Numbered from the stretch's first letter, positions 7,932 to 39,074 are shown. The stretch: DNA of 64,000 bases from Candidatus Nomurabacteria bacterium RIFCSPLOWO2_01_FULL_41_18 (GCA_001785865.1 MFUZ01000006.1:176880-240879), one strand, 5' to 3'. The notes: generated by a model from the letters alone, not told the origin. Numbers and translations are program-made.

Positions 7932-8660
7932 TTATATTTTCTCCGGTATTACCAAAGCCACAGATTCCATCAAGGTCTTAGAGGAACTTCCGGGCATACG
8001 CAAGAATTCACGGACTTTAAAAATGTGCTCAAAAAATCTAGTATCAAAGGGCATCTTTGACATGAACTTATTATGCAAAATAAGTTCTAGCGCATTTAGA
8101 AATTTCAAAGCTTTTGAGCGAGTGGAATCTAAGGCAATAATTTCATTTCCCTCTTCGTCCTCTTCTTCTGATTCAGCTAATAATTCTTTTATAAAATCAA
8201 TTCTTTTTTGCAAAGGCATATTTATAAACTTCTCTACTTCTTTTGTGTCTTCTCCTAATTCCGTAAGGCCTTGCCTTGGGGAGATTACATAAAATCTAGA
8301 AACTAAAGTTTTTAGAAGAGAATTTGTATCTGGCACGACCAGAAAGAAATGTGTATTTTCTATAGGCTCTTCAAACATTTTTAGCAAGACATTCTGCGCA
8401 TCTAAAGAAAAACTATTAACACAAACAACGAAAATTTTTTTAGTAGAAGAGAAACCTTTGTTCGTTGACATCGCACGCAAATCAAACGCCTCATCTATTT
8501 TTAGGTTATCAATTGTGATGTGACAAAAATCAGGATTACCCGAAGTTTTAATACCTAAATCTTCACAAAATCGTAAAATCTCCGGCACAATTTTCTCTCG
8601 TCCTCCTTCTATTAAGTAAGCATGGTGTAAATTATTTTTATCTAAGTGTTTTGAAATCAT
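7932..8660 (-). CDS. holB: DNA polymerase III delta-prime subunit-like (clamp-loader AAA+ fold, no Walker A)
   Basis: HAYLIEG, NVLLKMFEEP (the NALLKTLEEP box) and a SRF-type sensor motif. Confidence 0.65.
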   Translation of the reverse strand: MISKHLDKNNLHHAYLIEGGREKIVPEILRFCEDLGIKTSGNPDFCHITIDNLKIDEAFDLRAMSTNKGFSSTKKIFVVCVNSFSLDAQNVLLKMFEEPIENTHFFLVVPDTNSLLKTLVSRFYVISPRQGLTELGEDTKEVEKFINMPLQKRIDFIKELLAESEEEDEEGNEIIALDSTRSKALKFLNALELILHNKFMSKMPFDTRFFEHIFKVREFLRMPGSSSKTLMESVALVIPEKI

Positions 8661-8677
8661 GTGAATATTTTTTAAAT

Positions 8678-8812
8678 TAATAGCTTCTCTCGAAAAGCAA
8701 TCTATCTGGCAAAGCTTTGCCAGCGAACTGCTCGTCGCTCAAGAAAATAATAATCGGAATACCTATTTTATTTTCTAAGCTTCTGCGCAAGGCTTTTCTT
8801 AAGAACTATTTA
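8678..8812 (-). repeat. Dispersed ~134-bp repeat, copy 1 (inverted relative to copy 2), with an internal 18-bp palindrome CTGGCAAAGCTTTGCCAG
   Basis: The reverse complement of 8678-8812 aligns to 12112-12250 with about 95% identity (roughly 6 mismatches in 134). It is intergenic, between holB and mreB. Confidence 0.75.
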
Positions 8813-8823
8813 ATTTAAAATAA

Positions 8824-9837
8824 CTATTTTTTACTTAAAACTGTTTTCTTATATACATCCAAATGCTCCAATGCTATGCCTGTGCCCTTTACCACACAAA
8901 AAAGAGGATCTTCGGCTAAGGCCGCCTTTACCCCAGTTTTCCTGTAAACCAAATCAGTAAAATTGCGCAATTGAGACGAACCTCCGGTCATAATGATTCC
9001 TTGATCTATGATGTCGGAAGCAAGCTCGGGTGGAGTTTCTTGCAGTACATCTTTGATAGCTTGTATTATTTGTTTTAATTCTCCGTCTATGGCTTTAACT
9101 ATCTCATTTGTACCTACTCGCGCAGAACGAGGCAATCCCTGAATATAATCTCTACCCTTGATAGTAACATTAAGTTCTTCTTCCAAAAGTACAGCCGCAC
9201 CGATTTTTATTTTTACTTCTTCCGCTGTCCTGTCACCTATTGCTAGATTGAAGGTTTTTTTAATATAATCTGCTATTGCTTGATCTATTTTATTTCCGGC
9301 ACATTTAACTGATTTGGAAGAAACTATTCCGCCGAGCGATATAACTGCCACATCCGTCGTTCCTCCACCTATGTCCACTACCATATGCCCTCTAGACTCG
9401 TAAATCGGTATCCCAGCGCCAATAGCAGCCAAAATGGGTTCTTTGACGACATATGCATTCTTTGCACCTGCACGTATTGCGGCCTCTATTACAGCTCTGC
9501 GTTCTGTGCTGGTGACTCCGGCAGGTACTGAAACCATCACATCTGGTTTAAAGAAATTGAATCGCCCCATCGCTTTATTTATAAAATAACGAAGCATGGC
9601 TTCTGTCACACGATAGTCAGCAATCACACCGTCTTTCATCGGACAATAAGTAATGATGGATTCAGGGGTTTTGCCGATCATATCCTTGGCTTCGAAACCG
9701 ATAGCTAGAATCTTGTTGTCTTGCTCAGAAACTGCTACCACCGAAGGCTCGTTTAAGATTATCCCCTTGCCAGGCAAAAATACCAAGGTATTCGCTGTTC
9801 CTAAATCTATGCCTAATTTTTTCGTAAAAATACCCAT
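8824..9837 (-). CDS. mreB: Rod shape-determining protein MreB
   Basis: Actin-fold motifs GIDLGTANT and DIGGGTTD. Confidence 0.9.
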   Translation of the reverse strand: MGIFTKKLGIDLGTANTLVFLPGKGIILNEPSVVAVSEQDNKILAIGFEAKDMIGKTPESIITYCPMKDGVIADYRVTEAMLRYFINKAMGRFNFFKPDVMVSVPAGVTSTERRAVIEAAIRAGAKNAYVVKEPILAAIGAGIPIYESRGHMVVDIGGGTTDVAVISLGGIVSSKSVKCAGNKIDQAIADYIKKTFNLAIGDRTAEEVKIKIGAAVLLEEELNVTIKGRDYIQGLPRSARVGTNEIVKAIDGELKQIIQAIKDVLQETPPELASDIIDQGIIMTGGSSQLRNFTDLVYRKTGVKAALAEDPLFCVVKGTGIALEHLDVYKKTVLSKK

Positions 9838-9875
9838 TTAACTAATATATATTATTTTTGTGTTAAAATCAAAGA

Positions 9876-10229
9876 ATGAAAGATAAGGAACAAGAAGAGA
9901 AAAAAGAAGAAAAAGATCTTGAAAATAATTTAAAAAATCCATTTGCAGGATATTTAGATAATTTAAAAAAACATAAGCAAGCAGTGAACCCTGTTCACGA
10001 AATCGTAAACTGCTATTACAAAATGAACGGCTGGGAAAAGATGCCTAAAGATTTTTATACCGGCCGATATGCCTACAACAAGCTCGCTAGTGAGGCAAAA
10101 AAATTATATATAGCTTGTAGCGAAGAACTTGATGATTGTATTTGGGCGTTAGATAAAATGAAATACTTGGCAGAAAAAGGTGGCTTTGATTGGTCTATAA
10201 TTACCTGCTTGAAACATAAATTGAAATAG
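9876..10229 (+). CDS. Hypothetical protein
   Basis: 117-aa ORF with a Lys/Glu-rich N-terminus and no recognisable motif. Confidence 0.45.
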   Translation: MKDKEQEEKKEEKDLENNLKNPFAGYLDNLKKHKQAVNPVHEIVNCYYKMNGWEKMPKDFYTGRYAYNKLASEAKKLYIACSEELDDCIWALDKMKYLAEKGGFDWSIITCLKHKLK

Positions 10230-10263
10230 TATATATTTTAATAAATCAACCGAAAGGAAAATT

Positions 10264-10446
10264 ATGCTAAGTTGGTTCTTTCCCGCCGAGGGAGAGGGAT
10301 CCGTCCCTCAACACATTGAGTTGTTTGAACGCAAAGTTGTGGAGCATGATTTGGATATTGGAAAACCAGCGGTTCTCGAGGTGTTGAATTCTCATCACGA
10401 CAATCGCCCAGCCCAACGCATTCCCCACGATCTCGAAAGCAAATAA
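10264..10446 (+). CDS. Small hypothetical ORF (60 aa), GC-rich
   Basis: RBS-like aaaggaaa 7 nt upstream, and followed by a hairpin terminator. It could be non-coding. Confidence 0.3.
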   Translation: MLSWFFPAEGEGSVPQHIELFERKVVEHDLDIGKPAVLEVLNSHHDNRPAQRIPHDLESK

Positions 10447-10462
10447 GATCATCTCAATCAAT

Positions 10463-10500
10463 GGACGCACGGAGAACCCGATGCGTCCGCCCTTTTTTAA
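10463..10500 (+). terminator. Rho-independent terminator hairpin GGACGCA...TGCGTCC plus T-run
   Basis: ggacgcacggagaacccgatgcgtcc gcccttttttaa. Confidence 0.55.
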
Positions 10501-10501
10501 G

Positions 10502-10531
10502 TACGTAATGTATTACGTAATACATTACGTA
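10502..10531. repeat. 30-nt perfect palindrome TACGTAATGTATTACGTAATACATTACGTA, overlapping the rsmI stop codon
   Basis: The sequence equals its own reverse complement. It lies in a convergent intergenic region. Confidence 0.7.
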
Positions 10532-11214
10532 ACGATGACTGTAAATTCCCCTCTTTGTTTTTCGGGATTTTTATTAAGATATTCTAAAACTTCAGCAGGT
10601 GAGCCAGTTTTTAATTCTTCATAGATTTTTGTAAGTTCGCGCGCAATGCAGACTTTTTTAGTTGGGCAAAATTTTACAAGCGATTCTAGGGTTTTTAAAA
10701 TTCTGTGAGGGGATTCGTAAAATACCATAGTTCTCTCCGATTCAGCAATTTCTTTAAACAAAGTTTCTCTCCCCTTTTTGTGTGGTAAAAATCCAAGAAA
10801 AGTAAATTCATGCGTTGGCAATCCTGATGCAGAAAGTGCAGCAATGACTGCTGAAGGACCAGGAATCGGAATCACATCTACGCCATGGCTGAAATGCGTT
10901 TTGATCTTGTTTATAAGCATTGCCCCTGGGTCTGATATCCCCGGCGTACCCGCATCCGAAACCAACGCCAGATTTTTCCCCTGCTCTAATAATTCAAAAA
11001 TTTTATCTATCTTTTTAGCATGGCCTGCCCGGCTGTAATCGTCAGACGGGTAGCTCATAGTCGGCTTATTTATATTATATTTATCTAAAATCTTTTTAGT
11101 CTCCCGGGTGTCCTCGCACAATATCAAATCCACGCTTTTGAGCGTCTCTATCGCCCGGAGCGTAATGTCCCCCATATTTCCTATCGGGGTTGCGACGATG
11201 TAGAACTTTGCCAT
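10525..11214 (-). CDS. rsmI: 16S rRNA (cytidine1402-2'-O)-methyltransferase
   Basis: Tetrapyrrole-methylase fold motifs YIVATPIGNMGDIT, EDTRETKKIL and SDAGTPGISDPG. Confidence 0.85.
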   Translation of the reverse strand: MAKFYIVATPIGNMGDITLRAIETLKSVDLILCEDTRETKKILDKYNINKPTMSYPSDDYSRAGHAKKIDKIFELLEQGKNLALVSDAGTPGISDPGAMLINKIKTHFSHGVDVIPIPGPSAVIAALSASGLPTHEFTFLGFLPHKKGRETLFKEIAESERTMVFYESPHRILKTLESLVKFCPTKKVCIARELTKIYEELKTGSPAEVLEYLNKNPEKQRGEFTVIVT

Positions 11215-11624
11215 ATAGAATTTTTACCATTAAATGCAAAAATGAAAATAGCGGCCGCGACAATGAGTATATTCTTGATTATGTATTGCCCTTCCATTGT
11301 GGGCACCAAGAACCCTTGCCAGGCCACCTCGGGCAAGAGAAAAAGCGGCATAGTAATCATCGCGAGATGAGCTGCCAAAAGGAGCATTACAGGCTTGGTA
11401 AATTTTGGTACCAAAAATAATATACCGATCAGCATCTCAAAGATCCCAAAACAAATTATGAAAGTCTCGAAAGACATGAAAGGCATGGTTCTGCCGAGAA
11501 GTTCCGACACCAGCGGATTCGCCGGGCTCTCGTCGAAAACCTTCAGGATTCCGAACCAAAAATATACTAAAAAAATAGCGAAACGCGAGAAAGGTAGTGA
11601 TATTTTTTGAAAAAATCTTTCCAT
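11181..11624 (-). CDS. Integral membrane protein (DoxX/DUF417-like), probable start MERFF
   Basis: Four predicted TM helices. The family assignment is tentative. Confidence 0.45.
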   Translation of the reverse strand: MERFFQKISLPFSRFAIFLVYFWFGILKVFDESPANPLVSELLGRTMPFMSFETFIICFGIFEMLIGILFLVPKFTKPVMLLLAAHLAMITMPLFLLPEVAWQGFLVPTMEGQYIIKNILIVAAAIFIFAFNGKNSIWQSSTSSQPR

Positions 11625-11625
11625 A

Positions 11626-12096
11626 TTACTTTCTATATTTTTTCGTCCTCCACTTGTCTGCAATCTTTACCCGTGTGAGCGAACGCTCGAGCTCGGCTTC
11701 AAAATGCTCAAAGTCCACTGCCCCTTTGTTTTCTATTTGCTTCTTCAATTCTTCCGAACGAGCTTTTGCTTGAGCAATTTTTTCGTCAGAAATTTCTTTT
11801 ATATGTTCAGCAAAATCTGCAAGTACAGCCACTTCTGTAACGCCTTCTCCCCCCCGCCCATCCAGGCGGGGCAAGCCAGTTTTAACTTCCACAAATCCGC
11901 CGACTACAGCCATCGGCACATATTCGCCATTCGTAACAGCGACAACATCTCCGGATTTTAAACCAACAACAAGCGGAACATGTTCCGGCAAAATAGTTAT
12001 CTCGCCTTCCGTAGTCGGCAAGGTAACTTGATCCACCATTTCTTCCAAAACAAGCCGTTCTGGGGTGACTATTTTTAGTTTTAATTGTTTTGACAT
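11626..12096 (-). CDS. atpC: F1 ATP synthase epsilon subunit, with a ~12-aa in-frame GC-rich insertion (TGLPRLDGRGGEG)
   Basis: The N-terminal beta-sandwich and C-terminal helix are typical of epsilon. The insertion is coded by ccccgcc-tggatg-ggcgggg at 11846-11877. Confidence 0.85.
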   Translation of the reverse strand: MSKQLKLKIVTPERLVLEEMVDQVTLPTTEGEITILPEHVPLVVGLKSGDVVAVTNGEYVPMAVVGGFVEVKTGLPRLDGRGGEGVTEVAVLADFAEHIKEISDEKIAQAKARSEELKKQIENKGAVDFEHFEAELERSLTRVKIADKWRTKKYRK

Positions 12097-12111
12097 AATG
12101 TATATTTACTT

Positions 12112-12250
12112 AAAAAACAAATAGTTCTTAAGAAAAGCCTTGCGCAAGAGCTTAGAAAATAAATGAGGTATTCCGAATATTATTTTCTTGAGCGATGAGC
12201 AGTTCGCTGGCAAAGCTTTGCCAGATAGATTGCTTTTCGAGAGAAGCTAT
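12112..12250 (+). repeat. Dispersed ~134-bp repeat, copy 2, forming an inverted pair with copy 1
   Basis: About 95% identical to rc(8678-8812). It is intergenic, between atpD and atpC. Confidence 0.75.
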
Positions 12251-12312
12251 TTATTTTTTAAATTACAGTGCACCCTTCCCATTCTTCGCTAACGCTCATC
12301 AGGACTTCGGCG

Positions 12313-14420
<2,108 letters not shown>

Positions 14421-14460
14421 TTTATGTTATAATTTTAATCTTTCGATTTACTCAAGACTT

Positions 14461-15381
14461 TCAGCTTACAGACGCCATCCCGGCACTAATCTCTGATATT
14501 TCTCTGGTAATGTTCGACTGTCTGGCTTTGTTAAATACCAAAGTCAGATCATCTATCATTTCTCCCGAGGCATCACTCGCATTTTTCATCGCCACCATTC
14601 TGCTCGACTGTTCGGAAGCATTTGATTCTAGCATCATCTGATATATTTGCATTCTGGTCAATTTCTCTGCAAGAGAACCAATCAATTTTACCTTATCACC
14701 TTCTACTAAATAATTTATTGTTTTTTTCTGCAAAGACCCTATTTCCTCAGATTTAATATTTTCCAAAGATTCAATCATTTCTTTTAAATCTGTCCTACTC
14801 ACTGGCAAAATTTGTTTTATATTTGCTCGTTGCGTAAGGGCAGAAATAAAATCAGTATAAGCTACTAGCACTTTATCATATTTCAAAGCGCTGTATTCGT
14901 CTATGGCAAGTTTTGAAATAGGAATAATTTCAGACAAAGAAATGTTGTCATTTAATTCTGTAAAAGAGGCAATTACATTCACGCCGAGTCTGTGCATTGC
15001 CACATCCCCCTTTCTACCAATTGAAATTATGTCAAAGCCCGTCTTTGACATGCTAGATTTTAAGAGACTTAAAGTCTTTTTGATAACTTGCGCATTGTAA
15101 GCTCCACAAAGACCTCTGTTTGAAGTAATGAGAATCAATAAAACTTTACCTGCAGAAGTTTTTTTATCGCGTTCATCAAAAAGTGGATGCGAAATATCTT
15201 GAATACTTTGCGCAATTGAAGTCAAAATTTCCCAAGAATATTCTGCATACAAACGTGAAGCCAAAGTAGAAGCCACCGCACGCTTCATCTTAGAAGCAGC
15301 CACCAGCTCCATCGCTTTGGTGATCTTCTTAGTGCTTTTTACAGATTTTATTCTATTTTTTATTGCTTTACTGTTTGACAT
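14461..15381 (-). CDS. atpG: F1 ATP synthase gamma subunit
   Basis: Gamma-subunit N- and C-terminal coiled-coil helices, with a conserved C-terminus ITREISEISAGMASV. Confidence 0.9.
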   Translation of the reverse strand: MSNSKAIKNRIKSVKSTKKITKAMELVAASKMKRAVASTLASRLYAEYSWEILTSIAQSIQDISHPLFDERDKKTSAGKVLLILITSNRGLCGAYNAQVIKKTLSLLKSSMSKTGFDIISIGRKGDVAMHRLGVNVIASFTELNDNISLSEIIPISKLAIDEYSALKYDKVLVAYTDFISALTQRANIKQILPVSRTDLKEMIESLENIKSEEIGSLQKKTINYLVEGDKVKLIGSLAEKLTRMQIYQMMLESNASEQSSRMVAMKNASDASGEMIDDLTLVFNKARQSNITREISEISAGMASVS

Positions 15382-15448: not shown

Positions 15449-16948
15449 TTATTTCACAAAACTTGTTTTAAAATCCGCAATCGCTTTTTTAAGTTGCTCT
15501 TCGCCTTTATCTGTCCACATTTTGCTTTCTTTTACTTCTTTATAGAAAGTTTTAGCATGAGTTTCGGTATAATCAATGAGTCCAGATTCAAATTCTTTTA
15601 TTTTCTCCACTGGCACATCATCCATAAATCCTTTTGTAAGAGCATAAAACGTCACCACTTGGTGTTCTGTTTTTACCGGCGCGTATTGAAGCTGTTTGAG
15701 CATTTCCACTGATCTCTTGCCTCTTTCGAGTTGTTTTTTAGTAGATTCATCAAGATCAGAGCCGAATTGAGAAAAAGCTTCGAGTTCTCGGAACTGTGCA
15801 AGGTCAAGTTTCAAAGTTCCTGCAACTTTTTTCATAGCTTTTATTTGTGCACTAGAACCCACACGGGACACAGAAGAGCCCACGTTGACAGCCGGACGAA
15901 TTCCTTTATAAAAAAGATCTGTTTCAAGGAAAATTTGTCCGTCAGTAATGGAAATAACGTTGGTCGGAATGTAAGCTGAAATATCTCCAGCTTGAGTTTC
16001 AATAATTGGAAATGCGGTAATAGACCCTCCGCCATATTTTGCATTTCGTCTGCACGCACGTTCCAAAAGACGAGAGTGTAAATAAAAAACGTCTCCCGGA
16101 TACGCTTCACGGCCTGGGGGGCGACGAAGAAGCAAAGAAATTTCACGATATGCCACAGCGTGCTTGGAAAGATCATCATAAATAATTAAAACATCTTTTC
16201 CTTGATCCATAAAATATTCTGCAATAGAAACTCCGGCATACGGCGCAATATAAGACATTGAAGCCGCTTCCGATGCTCCTGCAGAAACAATAACCGTGTA
16301 ATCCATAGCCCCACCAGCCTCAAGTCTAGCTCCCAATTTGCGAAGTTTTGAATCTTTTTGACCGATTGACACATACACACAAATCATGTTTTGTCCTTTT
16401 TGATTTAAAATAGCATCGATGGCAAGCGCAGTTTTTCCTGTCTGTCTGTCACCGATGATGAGCTCACGTTGGCCACGACCTACGGGGATAATTGCGTCTA
16501 TGGCTTTGATACCTGTAGCGACTGGTTCAGAAACGCTCTGTCTAGTGACGACGCCCGGAGCTACTTTTTCGATTGGGTAAGTCTTGCCAGCTTTTATAGC
16601 TCCCTTGCCGTCAATCGGCGCGCCGATAGCATTCACCACTCGACCCAAAATACTATCAGAAACTGGTATTTCCAGAATTCTACCAGTAGCTTTGACCTCA
16701 TCCCCTTCTTTTATTTTTGAAAAGTCACCGAGAATAATTACTCCCACTGCATCTTCTTCTAAGTTTAACGCAACACCCGTTTCACCCCCCGGAAAAGTCA
16801 CCATTTCAGAAGATTTAATATCAGACAATCCAGAAACTTTGGCAATACCATCGAAAACTTCCATAACTTGACCCACTTTTTCCACTTTTAATTGGAGTGA
16901 AAAATTATCTATTTCTTTTCTTAAGTTTTCTATAATGTTATTGCTCAT
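15449..16948 (-). CDS. atpA: F1 ATP synthase alpha subunit
   Basis: GDRQTGKT P-loop and [27 protein letters not shown]. Confidence 0.95.
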
Positions 16949-37703: not shown

Positions 37704-38153
37704 TTAAAAAAGACTGTCCACGACTGCTTTTACCACCATCCCGTCTGCTTTGCCTTTTAGTTCTTTCATAAGAGCTGACATGAGCATTCCCTTCTTTGCG
37801 GCATCTGTGATTTTAAGTTCCTCTTTTTTAATACGAGCAATTTTTTCCACTTCACCCCTATCCATCATTTTTGGCAAATAAGTTTCAAGTATCGCCAGCT
37901 CGGATTCTTCTTCTTTTACTAAATCCTCTCTATTTCCCTTTTTAAATTGCTCTATTGAGTCTTTTCTTTGTTTTGCGAGTTTAGTTATAACAGAAATAGC
38001 TTCGGGGTCTGTGAGCATTTCTTGTGGTTTTCTATTTTTGGCGACAAGCTCGTTGGTAAATGCGGCAGACATGGCCCGGAAAGCTTTCAAGCGCAAAACG
38101 TCTTTTGCCATCATTGCTTCTTTTATTCCATTTTTAATTTGTTCGTGTAGCAT
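37704..38153 (-). CDS. GatB/YqeY domain protein
   Basis: YqeY-like helical repeat sequence. The probable start is MLHEQ. Confidence 0.65.
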   Translation of the reverse strand: MLHEQIKNGIKEAMMAKDVLRLKAFRAMSAAFTNELVAKNRKPQEMLTDPEAISVITKLAKQRKDSIEQFKKGNREDLVKEEESELAILETYLPKMMDRGEVEKIARIKKEELKITDAAKKGMLMSALMKELKGKADGMVVKAVVDSLF

Positions 38154-38191
38154 TGCTTGATTATAACAAAGAAATATTGTTTTAGAAAGCC

Positions 38192-38262
38192 TTGCACAGG
38201 CGGGTAGCCGAGCAGTTCGCCCTGCCAAGCTTGCAGGGATAGATTGCTTTATAAAATAATAT
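38192..38262 (+). repeat. Partial third copy of the ~134-bp repeat, with a covarying palindrome around AAGCTT
   Basis: gagcagttcgcc-ctgccaagcttgcaggg-atagattgcttt compared with gagcagttcgc-tggcaaagctttgccag-atagattgcttt in copies 1 and 2. Confidence 0.6.
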
Positions 38263-38284
38263 TTCTTTGTGGTAATATAGTAAG

Positions 38285-39001
38285 ATGGCTAAGCTAATAT
38301 TTTTTGATACGGAGACCACGGGCAATGAACAGAAGGACTCCCTATGCCAAATTGCTTATAAAAGTGGTGATGAAAGTTTTACTGGCCTTTACAAGCCTCC
38401 ACTAAAAATTCCACCCGAAGCTTCTGCTGTACACCATATAACCAATAAGATGGTCGCCGACAAACCATCTTTTGCTGAAAGTGGGGATTTGTCTAAAATT
38501 AAAAAACTTTTTGAAGATAAAGACATCGTCGTCGTGGCTCACAACGCGCCTTTTGATTTGATGATAGTCGAAAAAGAAGGAATCAAGCCGCAAAAATTTA
38601 TTTGCACTTTACGGGTTGCCAGACATTTAGACCCAGAGGGAAAAATAGAAAGATATAACTTACAATATTTGCGTTACTTACTCGAAATAGAAATAGATGC
38701 CACTGCTCATGACGCGCTTGGTGATGTGTTGGTCTTAGAAAAACTTTTTGAGCGATTGAAAAATAAATTAATTCAGAGCGAGAATGTAAGCGAAGATGAA
38801 GCGATAAATAAAATGATTGAAATCTCTTCGCACCCTTCACTTCTGCGTTCATTCAACTTTGGCAAACATACTGGTAAAAAAATAGAAGAAGTAGCGAAAG
38901 TAGATAGAGGCTATCTGGAATGGCTACTAGCCCAAAAACTCGAAAGCGATCAAATAGATGAGGATTGGATTTATACGTTGAAACATTATTTGGGGAAATA
39001 A
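38285..39001 (+). CDS. DnaQ-like 3'-5' exonuclease with a C-terminal DUF3820-like domain
   Basis: Exo I FFDTETTG, Exo II VVAHNAPFDL, and C-terminus KHTGKKIEEVAKVDRGYLEWLL. Confidence 0.75.
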   Translation: MAKLIFFDTETTGNEQKDSLCQIAYKSGDESFTGLYKPPLKIPPEASAVHHITNKMVADKPSFAESGDLSKIKKLFEDKDIVVVAHNAPFDLMIVEKEGIKPQKFICTLRVARHLDPEGKIERYNLQYLRYLLEIEIDATAHDALGDVLVLEKLFERLKNKLIQSENVSEDEAINKMIEISSHPSLLRSFNFGKHTGKKIEEVAKVDRGYLEWLLAQKLESDQIDEDWIYTLKHYLGK

Positions 39002-39004
39002 TCA

Positions 39005-39052
39005 CCACCCCCTACCCCCGCCTTAATCAAGGAGGGGGTTAGGGGGTGGTAA
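39005..39052 (+). terminator. G/C-rich hairpin CCACCCCCTACCCCC...GGGGGTTAGGGGGTGG
   Basis: Imperfect 15-bp stem immediately after the stop codon. Confidence 0.5.
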
Positions 39053-39074
39053 TTCTGAATTCGGAAGGAAAAAC

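Follow-up and report, generated by a model that had tools for sequence, protein, structure and literature searches.

A dispersed, structurally constrained palindromic element in the intergenic spacers of Nomurabacteria

Candidatus Nomurabacteria bacterium RIFCSPLOWO2_01_FULL_41_18 carries, in the 64,000-nt stretch of DNA analysed here (GCA_001785865.1, MFUZ01000006.1:176880-240879; hereafter the window), two near-identical inverted repeats that face each other across a 3.3-kb block of genes. One copy (A) lies between mreB and a holB-like gene, the other (B) between the ATP synthase genes atpD and atpC. The initial annotation offered two explanations for this geometry: an invertible or transposed segment that separates atpC from the rest of the atp operon, or two members of a dispersed repeat family. 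The latter has been borne out, as the element recurs at many unrelated intergenic sites that are not tied to rearrangement. Copies A and B belong to a dispersed, structurally constrained, palindromic intergenic element that shows gain, loss, flipping, decay and exchange between copies, and the family probably consists of repeats of the ERIC, BOX or REP kind that act as a hairpin in transcripts.

An inverted-repeat search places the two arms at 8667-8816 and 12114-12263, each 150 nt long and 92% complementary to the other, with 3297 nt between them. Comparison of the arms by BLAST and MAFFT defines a gap-free core with sharp bounds (8674-8811 against 12256-12119), in which 7 mismatches over 138 nt correspond to 94.9% identity, in good agreement with the ∼134 bp and 95% first reported. 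The perfect 18-nt palindrome CTGGCAAAGCTTTGCCAG noticed in each copy is also real: it occurs at exactly two sites in the window, one in each copy, and the number expected is nil (0 in 100 shuffles). The combination of an inverted pair and a palindrome is far beyond chance. Gene calls support the intergenic position given for both copies. Copy A sits in the spacer between the mreB stop (8824), directly upstream of it, and the holB-like start (8660), which lies 9 nt past the extended hairpin of the copy and 20 nt past the 95%-identical core. Copy B sits in the spacer that separates atpD, which stops at 12313, from atpC, which starts at 12096; its extended hairpin begins 53 nt beyond the end of atpD, and atpC starts 13 nt past that hairpin and 18 nt past the core.

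Each copy of the element is a single long imperfect palindrome of ∼130–170 nt, which folds into a three-way junction on one particular strand. The order along this folding strand is 5'-P1 - CU - P3 - GUUCG - P2 - AUAGAUU - P1'-3'. P2 is a hairpin of 6–7 bp with a free sequence (e.g. CUGGCAA AGCU UUGCCAG), and P3 reads UGCGC[A]GG ... CC GAGCA. The family has two forms, which differ in P3: in the long form, with a model match of ∼121 nt, it carries an AU-rich extension of ∼20 bp capped by GGUAYUCC, and in the short form, with a match of ∼83 nt, it is a 4-bp stub with a GACG or GGGUA loop. The outer stem P1 runs well past the modelled region, with ∼28 of 34 positions in Watson-Crick pairs; its sequence falls into subfamilies common to several species, and its outermost 10–13 bp are specific to the locus.

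A covariance model of the family (R1), run against the window with filters off, finds exactly three significant matches, so that the A/B pair is not alone: a third copy (C), of the short form, which an inverted-repeat scan also brought out, lies at 38153-38283 (Table 1). The folding strand of copy A is the sense strand of mreB and holB (-48.2 kcal/mol on the minus strand, z = -5.1, against -40.0 on the plus strand). That of copy B is antisense to atpD and atpC (-46.3 against -42.3 kcal/mol), and this copy is bordered by complementary, locus-specific flanks, AAAAAACAAAUAG and CUAUUUAUUUUUU. Copy C folds better on the plus strand (-50.5 against -37.8 kcal/mol); its P3 has shrunk to a GGC-GGGUA-GCC stub, and its P2 retains the pairing and the AAGCUU centre despite a new stem sequence. 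Folding z-scores range from -3.9 to -5.6. Copy C fills the entire 131-nt spacer between two divergent genes, a YqeY-like gene (37704-38153, minus strand) and an RNase T/ExoX-like gene (38285-39001, plus strand), so both promoters must overlap the AT-rich P1 arms or lie elsewhere. A separate G+C-rich hairpin, AATCACCACCCCCTACCCCC / GGGGTTAGGGGGTGGTAATT, with 20-nt arms that are 90% complementary, overlaps the stop of the exonuclease gene at 39000-39054; it does not resemble the family element, which is AU-rich, and is perhaps a terminator of the conventional type.

Table 1. Copies of the element in the window and the genes around copies A and B, in window coordinates (CM, covariance model; ORF, open reading frame)
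Feature	Position	Strand	Remarks
Copy A, long form, full extended hairpin	8670..8820	-	Internal inverted arms 8670-8698 + 8792-8820
Copy A, covariance-model match	8685-8805	-	CM R1, 133.8 bits, E = 5e-30
Copy A, P2 hairpin	8706..8723	-	CUGGCAA-AGCU-UUGCCAG, the 18-nt palindrome
Copy B, long form, full extended hairpin	12110..12259	+	
Copy B, covariance-model match	12125-12245	+	CM R1, 130.3 bits, E = 3.4e-29
Copy B, P2 hairpin	12207..12224	+	The 18-nt palindrome
Copy C, short form	38153..38283	+	Inverted arms 38 nt, 82%
Copy C, covariance-model match	38177-38259	+	CM R1, 62.6 bits, E = 9e-13
Copy C, P2 hairpin	38220..38238	+	Stem sequence wholly different (CCCUGC...GCAGGG)
holB-like (DNA polymerase III delta-prime)	7932-8660	-	Pfam DNA_pol3_delta2, E = 9e-17
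mreB	8824-9837	-	Pfam MreB_Mbl, E = 5e-133
rsmI-like	10525-11214	-	
DUF417 membrane protein	11181-11663	-	
atpC (ATP synthase epsilon)	11626-12096	-	Pfam ATP-synt_DE_N, E = 7e-19
atpD (ATP synthase beta)	12313-13674	-	Pfam ATP-synt_ab, E = 2e-73
241-aa ORF, between atpG and atpD	13695-14420	-	No family match
atpG	14461-15381	-	
atpA	15449-16948	-	

The listed genes from holB to atpA all lie on the minus strand, with the atp genes in canonical order apart from an extra ORF of 241 aa. The atpC gene is the next gene after atpD, 216 nt downstream on the same strand, so nothing separates it from its operon; the broken adjacency claimed in the initial annotation does not exist, and copy B merely occupies the 216-nt spacer. 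Two side observations concern the operon itself. The 241-aa ORF has a low G+C content (0.28–0.34, against ∼0.44 in atpD), has no match in Pfam, NCBIfam or PHROGs, and is not found at the same position in three related loci (L084, L037 and L081); it has the appearance of a lineage-specific gene that was inserted into an essential operon. The 3' end of atpD carries an insertion of ∼49 nt (12279-12327, minus strand; CGAGGCGGGATGTAGCGCCGAAGTCCTGATGAGCGTTAGCGAAGAATGG in gene sense), which replaces the final codons and supplies its own stop (TAG, 12313-12315), while the former C-terminal codons and stop (GAAGGGTGCACTGTAA, 12263-12278) persist just downstream as a relic. This insertion is common to L084, with a covarying small hairpin around the stop, and is missing from L037, L065, L081 and L032. 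A hammerhead ribozyme within it (CUGAUGAG...CGAA) was considered and rejected, as the stem order does not fit on inspection by hand.

The extent of the family emerges from searches of genomes and metagenomes. A scan of one genome per species for the 18-mer returns 93 loci, about half of which are chance matches in unrelated phyla. In ∼45 loci, from assemblies of Nomurabacteria, Paceibacterota or Patescibacteria, the match extends to a core of ∼103 nt with 85–97% identity, and several copies of the family are often seen within 8 kb. The covariance model identifies 51 copies in the genome loci, from 29 species-representative assemblies (Nomurabacteria/Paceibacterota), and at least 87 copies in at least 80 loci of groundwater metagenomes, where the scan was anchored on the junction strands and not seeded on P2. 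Window, genomes and metagenomes together yield at least 141 copies, all of them intergenic. Extrapolation from three copies in 64 kb would give tens of copies per ∼1-Mb genome. Apart from full-length copies in assemblies labelled Burkholderiales, Bacteroidota and Saccharibacteria (L055 and L093, L019, L073, L094), which may be mis-binned or mislabelled contigs, the element is restricted to Nomurabacteria/Paceibacterota, and viral contigs, phage records and plasmid records contain no family copies.

The family is apparently undescribed. Rfam 15 at its gathering thresholds reports only four tRNAs in the whole window, and a permissive scan of 8600-8900 (E ≤ 10) returns only rli60 at 18 bits (gathering threshold 60) and SdsR at 14 bits (gathering threshold 38), with E = 5–8. 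In the literature that could be searched, also by sequence, no relevant description of the element was found.

Across species, the strands of the junction hardly vary and the stems covary. A hand-drawn structure applied to 47 sequences has 96.1% of its cells paired, compared with 85.3% in shuffles and 36–50% when the partners are slid, and compensatory changes occur in 27 of its 43 pairs. Covariation scores 0.261 against 0.090; on no measure does any of 500 shuffles reach the observed value. RNAalifold, used independently, finds compensatory changes in 16 of 34 pairs. Among the metagenome matches listed, P2 occurs in ∼39 sequence variants, nearly all of them perfect hairpins, and the junction strands stay fixed. 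The same pattern is visible between the two copies that opened the analysis, where four of the six differences in the modelled region form two compensatory doubles (pair 23-74 from G-C to A-U, pair 40-53 from A-U to U-A).

The constraint is also asymmetric between the strands. For 39 of 39 copies, the more stable fold is that of the same strand; its mean advantage is 8.7 kcal/mol, with 154 against 41 G-U pairs, although the shared core means that these 39 copies are not independent. The outer stems taken alone, which evolve independently, contain 71 G-U against 35 A-C oppositions. Together, strand asymmetry and compensatory changes indicate that a single-stranded form, either RNA or single-stranded DNA, is under selection.

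Several other identities for parts of the element were tried and discarded. The palindrome is not a protein operator, since both halves change together in the ∼39 variants, within and between genomes. A sigma-54 promoter in the palindrome (TGGCA-N-TTGC) fails on two counts: its spacing is wrong by a single base, and its sequence shows the covariation of a hairpin. The hammerhead-like motif CUGACGAG, present in a number of short P3 stubs, is just one of many variants of the hairpin loop. Conserved terminal inverted repeats of the kind that bound miniature inverted-repeat transposable elements (MITEs) were not found; the outer part of P1 is the most variable portion of the element and the centre is conserved.

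Comparison with five relatives (L032, L037, L065, L081 and L084), whose AtpD is 89–92% and MreB 91–98% identical to the window, shows how the element comes and goes while the genes stay in place. The order atpD-atpC-rsmI-(117-aa ORF, opposite strand)-mreB-holB is kept in all five. The comparison of atpD-atpC synteny thus gives no break at the block ends, even where a copy is missing, and the 3.3 kb that copies A and B enclose are ordinary chromosome in conserved synteny. The atpD-atpC spacer holds an antisense copy in the window and L084, a sense copy in L037 and L065, a degenerate copy in L081 and none in L032; the unit that has been flipped at this spacer includes its asymmetric arms. The mreB-holB spacer carries a copy in the window and in L032, and none in L065. 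Decay is evident in the degenerate copy (L081:2417-2544). Its outer stem, shared with L065, is kept, with pairing that runs as far as the stop codon of atpD, but the junction strands carry mutations, an AU hairpin stands in place of P2, and the covariance model makes no call at E < 0.01. A clean pair of empty and filled sites was not found: in L032 and L081 (atpD-atpC) and in L065 (mreB-holB), the spacer has diverged too far or holds other hairpins. The L032 spacer (1366-1461), for example, has another hairpin and four tandem CTTTATAA units instead of the family element. A further copy is present between atpE (c subunit) and atpF (b subunit) in L084 (1787-1907) and L081 (7404-7524), so the atp operon can carry two copies; at this junction the window has only 6 nt and no copy.

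Copies also exchange sequence. Their cores are ∼90% identical, which means that copies can recombine. One hybrid copy was seen (L095:1402-1522), whose 5' arm is identical to that of the copy in L074 (3584-3704) over ∼33 nt and whose 3' arm matches that of L049 and L055 over ∼21 nt; the two arms are unable to pair with each other past ∼12 bp. Exchange between copies therefore occurs. The gene block that lies 1.7–3.5 kb downstream of the element in L074 is inverted and directly upstream in L095. It would seem that copies recombined and that a rearrangement accompanied the event, the parental loci not being reconstructable from 8-kb loci.

In the source species itself, the arrangement around copies A and B is uniform. 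Contigs encoding an exact AtpC (13 examined) or an exact MreB (15 examined), drawn from several ENA and JGI samples, have the same neighbours everywhere, and no inverted junction occurs in them: spanning contigs all read atpD, copy B, atpC or mreB, copy A, holB. Four contigs (L002, L003, L007 and L008) are identical to the window except for dense substitution clusters in their last 100–300 nt, which look like the assembly switching to a related strain. A test of strain-level conservation with L002 and L003 (3–4% diverged) was uninformative, as the differences lie only at the contig ends. The breaks of several source-species contigs fall within atpC or atpD rather than at the repeat. No recombinase or transposase was detected by Pfam and NCBIfam among the ORFs of 7932-15381, three of which have no match, and there are no direct target-site duplications; the flanks of the copies are inverted repeats (e.g. 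GAAAAGATAAA...TTTATCTTTTC).

The genomic context of the family was examined for 121 copies, among the matches listed, that are flanked on each side by a called gene no more than 400 nt away. Co-directional genes flank an antisense element in 42 cases and a sense element in 24; a further 33 copies lie between convergent genes and 22 between divergent ones. Stop codons are a median of 16–18 nt from the end of the model, i.e. inside P1, and start codons 37–42 nt. The neighbours are housekeeping genes (efp, recA, ftsK, rpsT, rpsO, ruvA, spoU, fpg, atpE and atpF), and no mobility gene is present among 20 neighbouring proteins in copy-rich loci. The ends of the element are A-tracts and T-tracts, with a T-tract (at least six T in seven, on the exit side) at 40% and 54% of copies against a background of 19%. 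A promoter scan gives no more sites than shuffled sequence and no conserved upstream box. A riboswitch or 5' leader, which would keep a fixed sense orientation upstream of its gene, does not match these four arrangements, nor the many copies that come right after stop codons. Cassette arrays of the attC type were not found either: orientations are mixed within one locus (L048, L096), there is no integrase, and the base of the hairpin is variable.

On balance, the dispersed family to which copies A and B belong is likely to be one of structured intergenic repeats, akin to ERIC, BOX or REP, that act as hairpins in transcripts. The element would occasionally be copied into, or exchanged between, AT-rich palindromic intergenic sites, where its shape would be maintained by selection on the single-stranded fold. 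Once placed, it would be read through within neighbouring transcripts as a large, orientation-tolerant hairpin, serving perhaps as a 3'-end protector, as a partial terminator or insulator, or as an RNase target. A hairpin that protects 3' ends or attenuates transcription fits the recurrence of the element after certain cistrons (atpE|atpF, atpD|atpC, mreB|holB, rpsT, rpsO, efp). These cistrons are highly expressed and expected to be needed in excess over the next gene. Such a role in host transcripts is put forward tentatively. Recombination between copies may take place in the family, with no such event at this locus.

A number of observations weigh against this picture. The better-folding strand is antisense more often than sense in co-directional pairs (42 against 24, p = 0.036), which is odd for a pure read-through RNA, and a read-through transcript is not to be expected for the 22 of 121 copies that have divergent genes on either side. 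The T-tracts are not tied to the side of the incoming gene (p = 0.35 and 0.58), the base of P1 is AU-rich, and a scan with the terminator consensus comes up empty at the copies. Conservation is centred on the junction and not on the termini, and the cores do not cluster by genome (90.2% identity within genomes, 89.2% between them), a pattern more like a functional RNA under purifying selection than a typical selfish repeat. The core of copy B, for instance, has 98% identity with that of a copy found elsewhere in the genome of a different species. The copies and copy-rich loci show no target-site duplication, conserved terminal inverted repeat or associated transposase. The absence of the inverted form at copies A and B, for its part, rests on assembled contigs, which would hide a minority orientation.

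Some of these observations would suit a different reading, possible if rather unlikely, in which the copies are a multicopy gene family for a stand-alone structured non-coding RNA. The family would then be a new functional RNA class of Nomurabacteria/Paceibacteria, transcribed from its own, better-folding strand independently of the neighbours, and its product could be a protein-binding scaffold, a regulator, a signal (antisense or for processing) to operon mRNAs, or even a ribozyme. Its 5' and 3' ends would be joined by the long P1, in the manner of Y RNA, 6S RNA or signal recognition particle RNA. Invariant junction strands alongside freely covarying P1, P2 and P3, with an optional extension of P3, are the pattern of a functional RNA; one strand is consistently favoured, and compensatory changes separate even the copies of the window. 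The reading is kept alive by this junction-centred conservation, by the lack of clustering by genome, with cores as alike between species as within a genome, and by the 22 divergent copies: orientation is independent of the neighbours, and sites between divergent genes, where only a dedicated promoter could transcribe the element, are not depleted. Yet the copies share no conserved upstream promoter-like motif, and their flanks differ between copies and subfamilies. Degenerate (L081) and hybrid (L095) copies exist, no partner protein gene recurs beside the copies, and there is no related Rfam family. Presence and orientation vary at orthologous spacers of close relatives, which is unusual for essential RNA genes.

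The selected single strand could also be DNA. The element would then be a substrate for recombination or transposition in trans, like attC sites, the ends of IS200/IS605 elements with REP/RAYT, or Xer-dependent elements, and the bias in folding strand would show which strand undergoes processing. Tolerance of G-T and avoidance of A-C, the asymmetry seen here, would also be expected for folded single-stranded DNA, and the lack of target-site duplications, the locus-specific palindromes, the flipping of the whole unit at the same spacer between species and the exchange recorded by the hybrid copy all sit well with it. It is nevertheless improbable, because neither a recombinase nor conserved ends were found: the block in the window and the 20 neighbouring proteins include no HUH transposase, tyrosine or serine recombinase or integrase, and conservation is lowest at the termini, although in known systems it is conserved ends that are recognised. 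Nor do the copies form co-oriented cassette arrays, and no copy turned up in viral contigs or in phage or plasmid records. The reading first proposed, in which copies A and B bound an invertible segment or a composite MITE-flanked block (8.7-12.25 kb) displacing atpC, is now very hard to sustain. Its appeal lay in two 95%-identical inverted copies 3.3 kb apart, and the L095 hybrid makes homologous exchange between family copies possible. Against it, atpC directly follows atpD on the same strand, gene order is the same in five relatives with 0, 1 or 2 copies, the source-species contigs examined from several samples all have identical junctions, and the block has no recombinase and no target-site duplication; the proposal is accordingly rejected. 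Each copy, moreover, keeps its own complementary flanks, with -7.1 and -7.7 kcal/mol for the present pairings against -6.2 and -2.0 for swapped ones, a weak argument as the flanks are AT-rich.

Among described systems, the element that probably acts as a transcript hairpin appears closest in behaviour to ERIC/IRU, BOX and REP/REPIN. ERIC/IRU elements, imperfect palindromes of ∼127 bp in Enterobacteriaceae and Vibrio, resemble it in being exclusively intergenic, in forming a single long hairpin (∼120–170 nt in the present element) and in occurring in either orientation, at low to moderate copy number and with strong conservation across species. They likewise have no transposase of their own and vary in presence at orthologous spacers. 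However, the two share no sequence similarity; the present element conserves a central three-way junction within an outer stem that is variable and partly locus-specific, has no target duplication of the TA type, and is hosted by Nomurabacteria, members of the Candidate Phyla Radiation (CPR). The pneumococcal BOX (boxA-boxB-boxC) and RUP repeats are also modular and intergenic, with a variable middle module that recalls the long and short forms of P3, and with predicted stable RNA structures that lie among housekeeping genes in both orientations. In BOX, the ends are conserved (boxA pairs with boxC), whereas here the ends vary and the junction is conserved; BOX has documented effects on expression, whereas any such effect of the present element is putative.

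REP/BIME and REPIN sequences are comparable in being palindromic, in folding in a strand-specific manner and in often lying just after stop codons; possible stabilisation of the upstream mRNA and long vertical persistence may be counted as further likenesses. They differ in size and dependence: a REP is 20–40 nt long, REPINs are doublets in which the conserved part is the REP at each end, and a RAYT gene is needed, whereas no HUH or RAYT-like gene was found near the copies examined. The Correia elements of Neisseria (NEMIS/CREE) and classical MITEs are, like the present element, small, non-coding and bounded by inverted repeats, and they occur within operons and can be processed as RNA hairpins. 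Unlike it, MITEs have conserved terminal inverted repeats and direct target-site duplications, both of which were sought here and not found, and no parent insertion sequence or transposase is present in copy-rich loci. Bidirectional intrinsic terminators offer a last comparison, since they too consist of an A-tract, a hairpin and a T-tract right after stop codons and are enriched between convergent genes (33 of 121 copies here), but the hairpin of the present element is branched and ∼60 bp in size, its base is AU-rich and its junction is conserved in sequence.

For the source genome, the immediate consequence is the removal of a false lead: the atp operon is not split, and neither a switch nor a composite transposon lies at 8.7–12.3 kb. 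For the family, the consequences are wider. CPR bacteria have tiny, tightly packed genomes in which, to our knowledge, almost no non-coding elements have been characterised. A conserved, covarying element of ∼130–170 nt, lodged inside essential operons (atp, ribosomal protein genes, mreB), would be a useful handle on how CPR transcripts are organised, as well as a marker for Nomurabacteria contigs. Its ∼90%-identical cores are also potential substrates for homologous rearrangement, which matters for the assembly of these genomes and for the analysis of their synteny.

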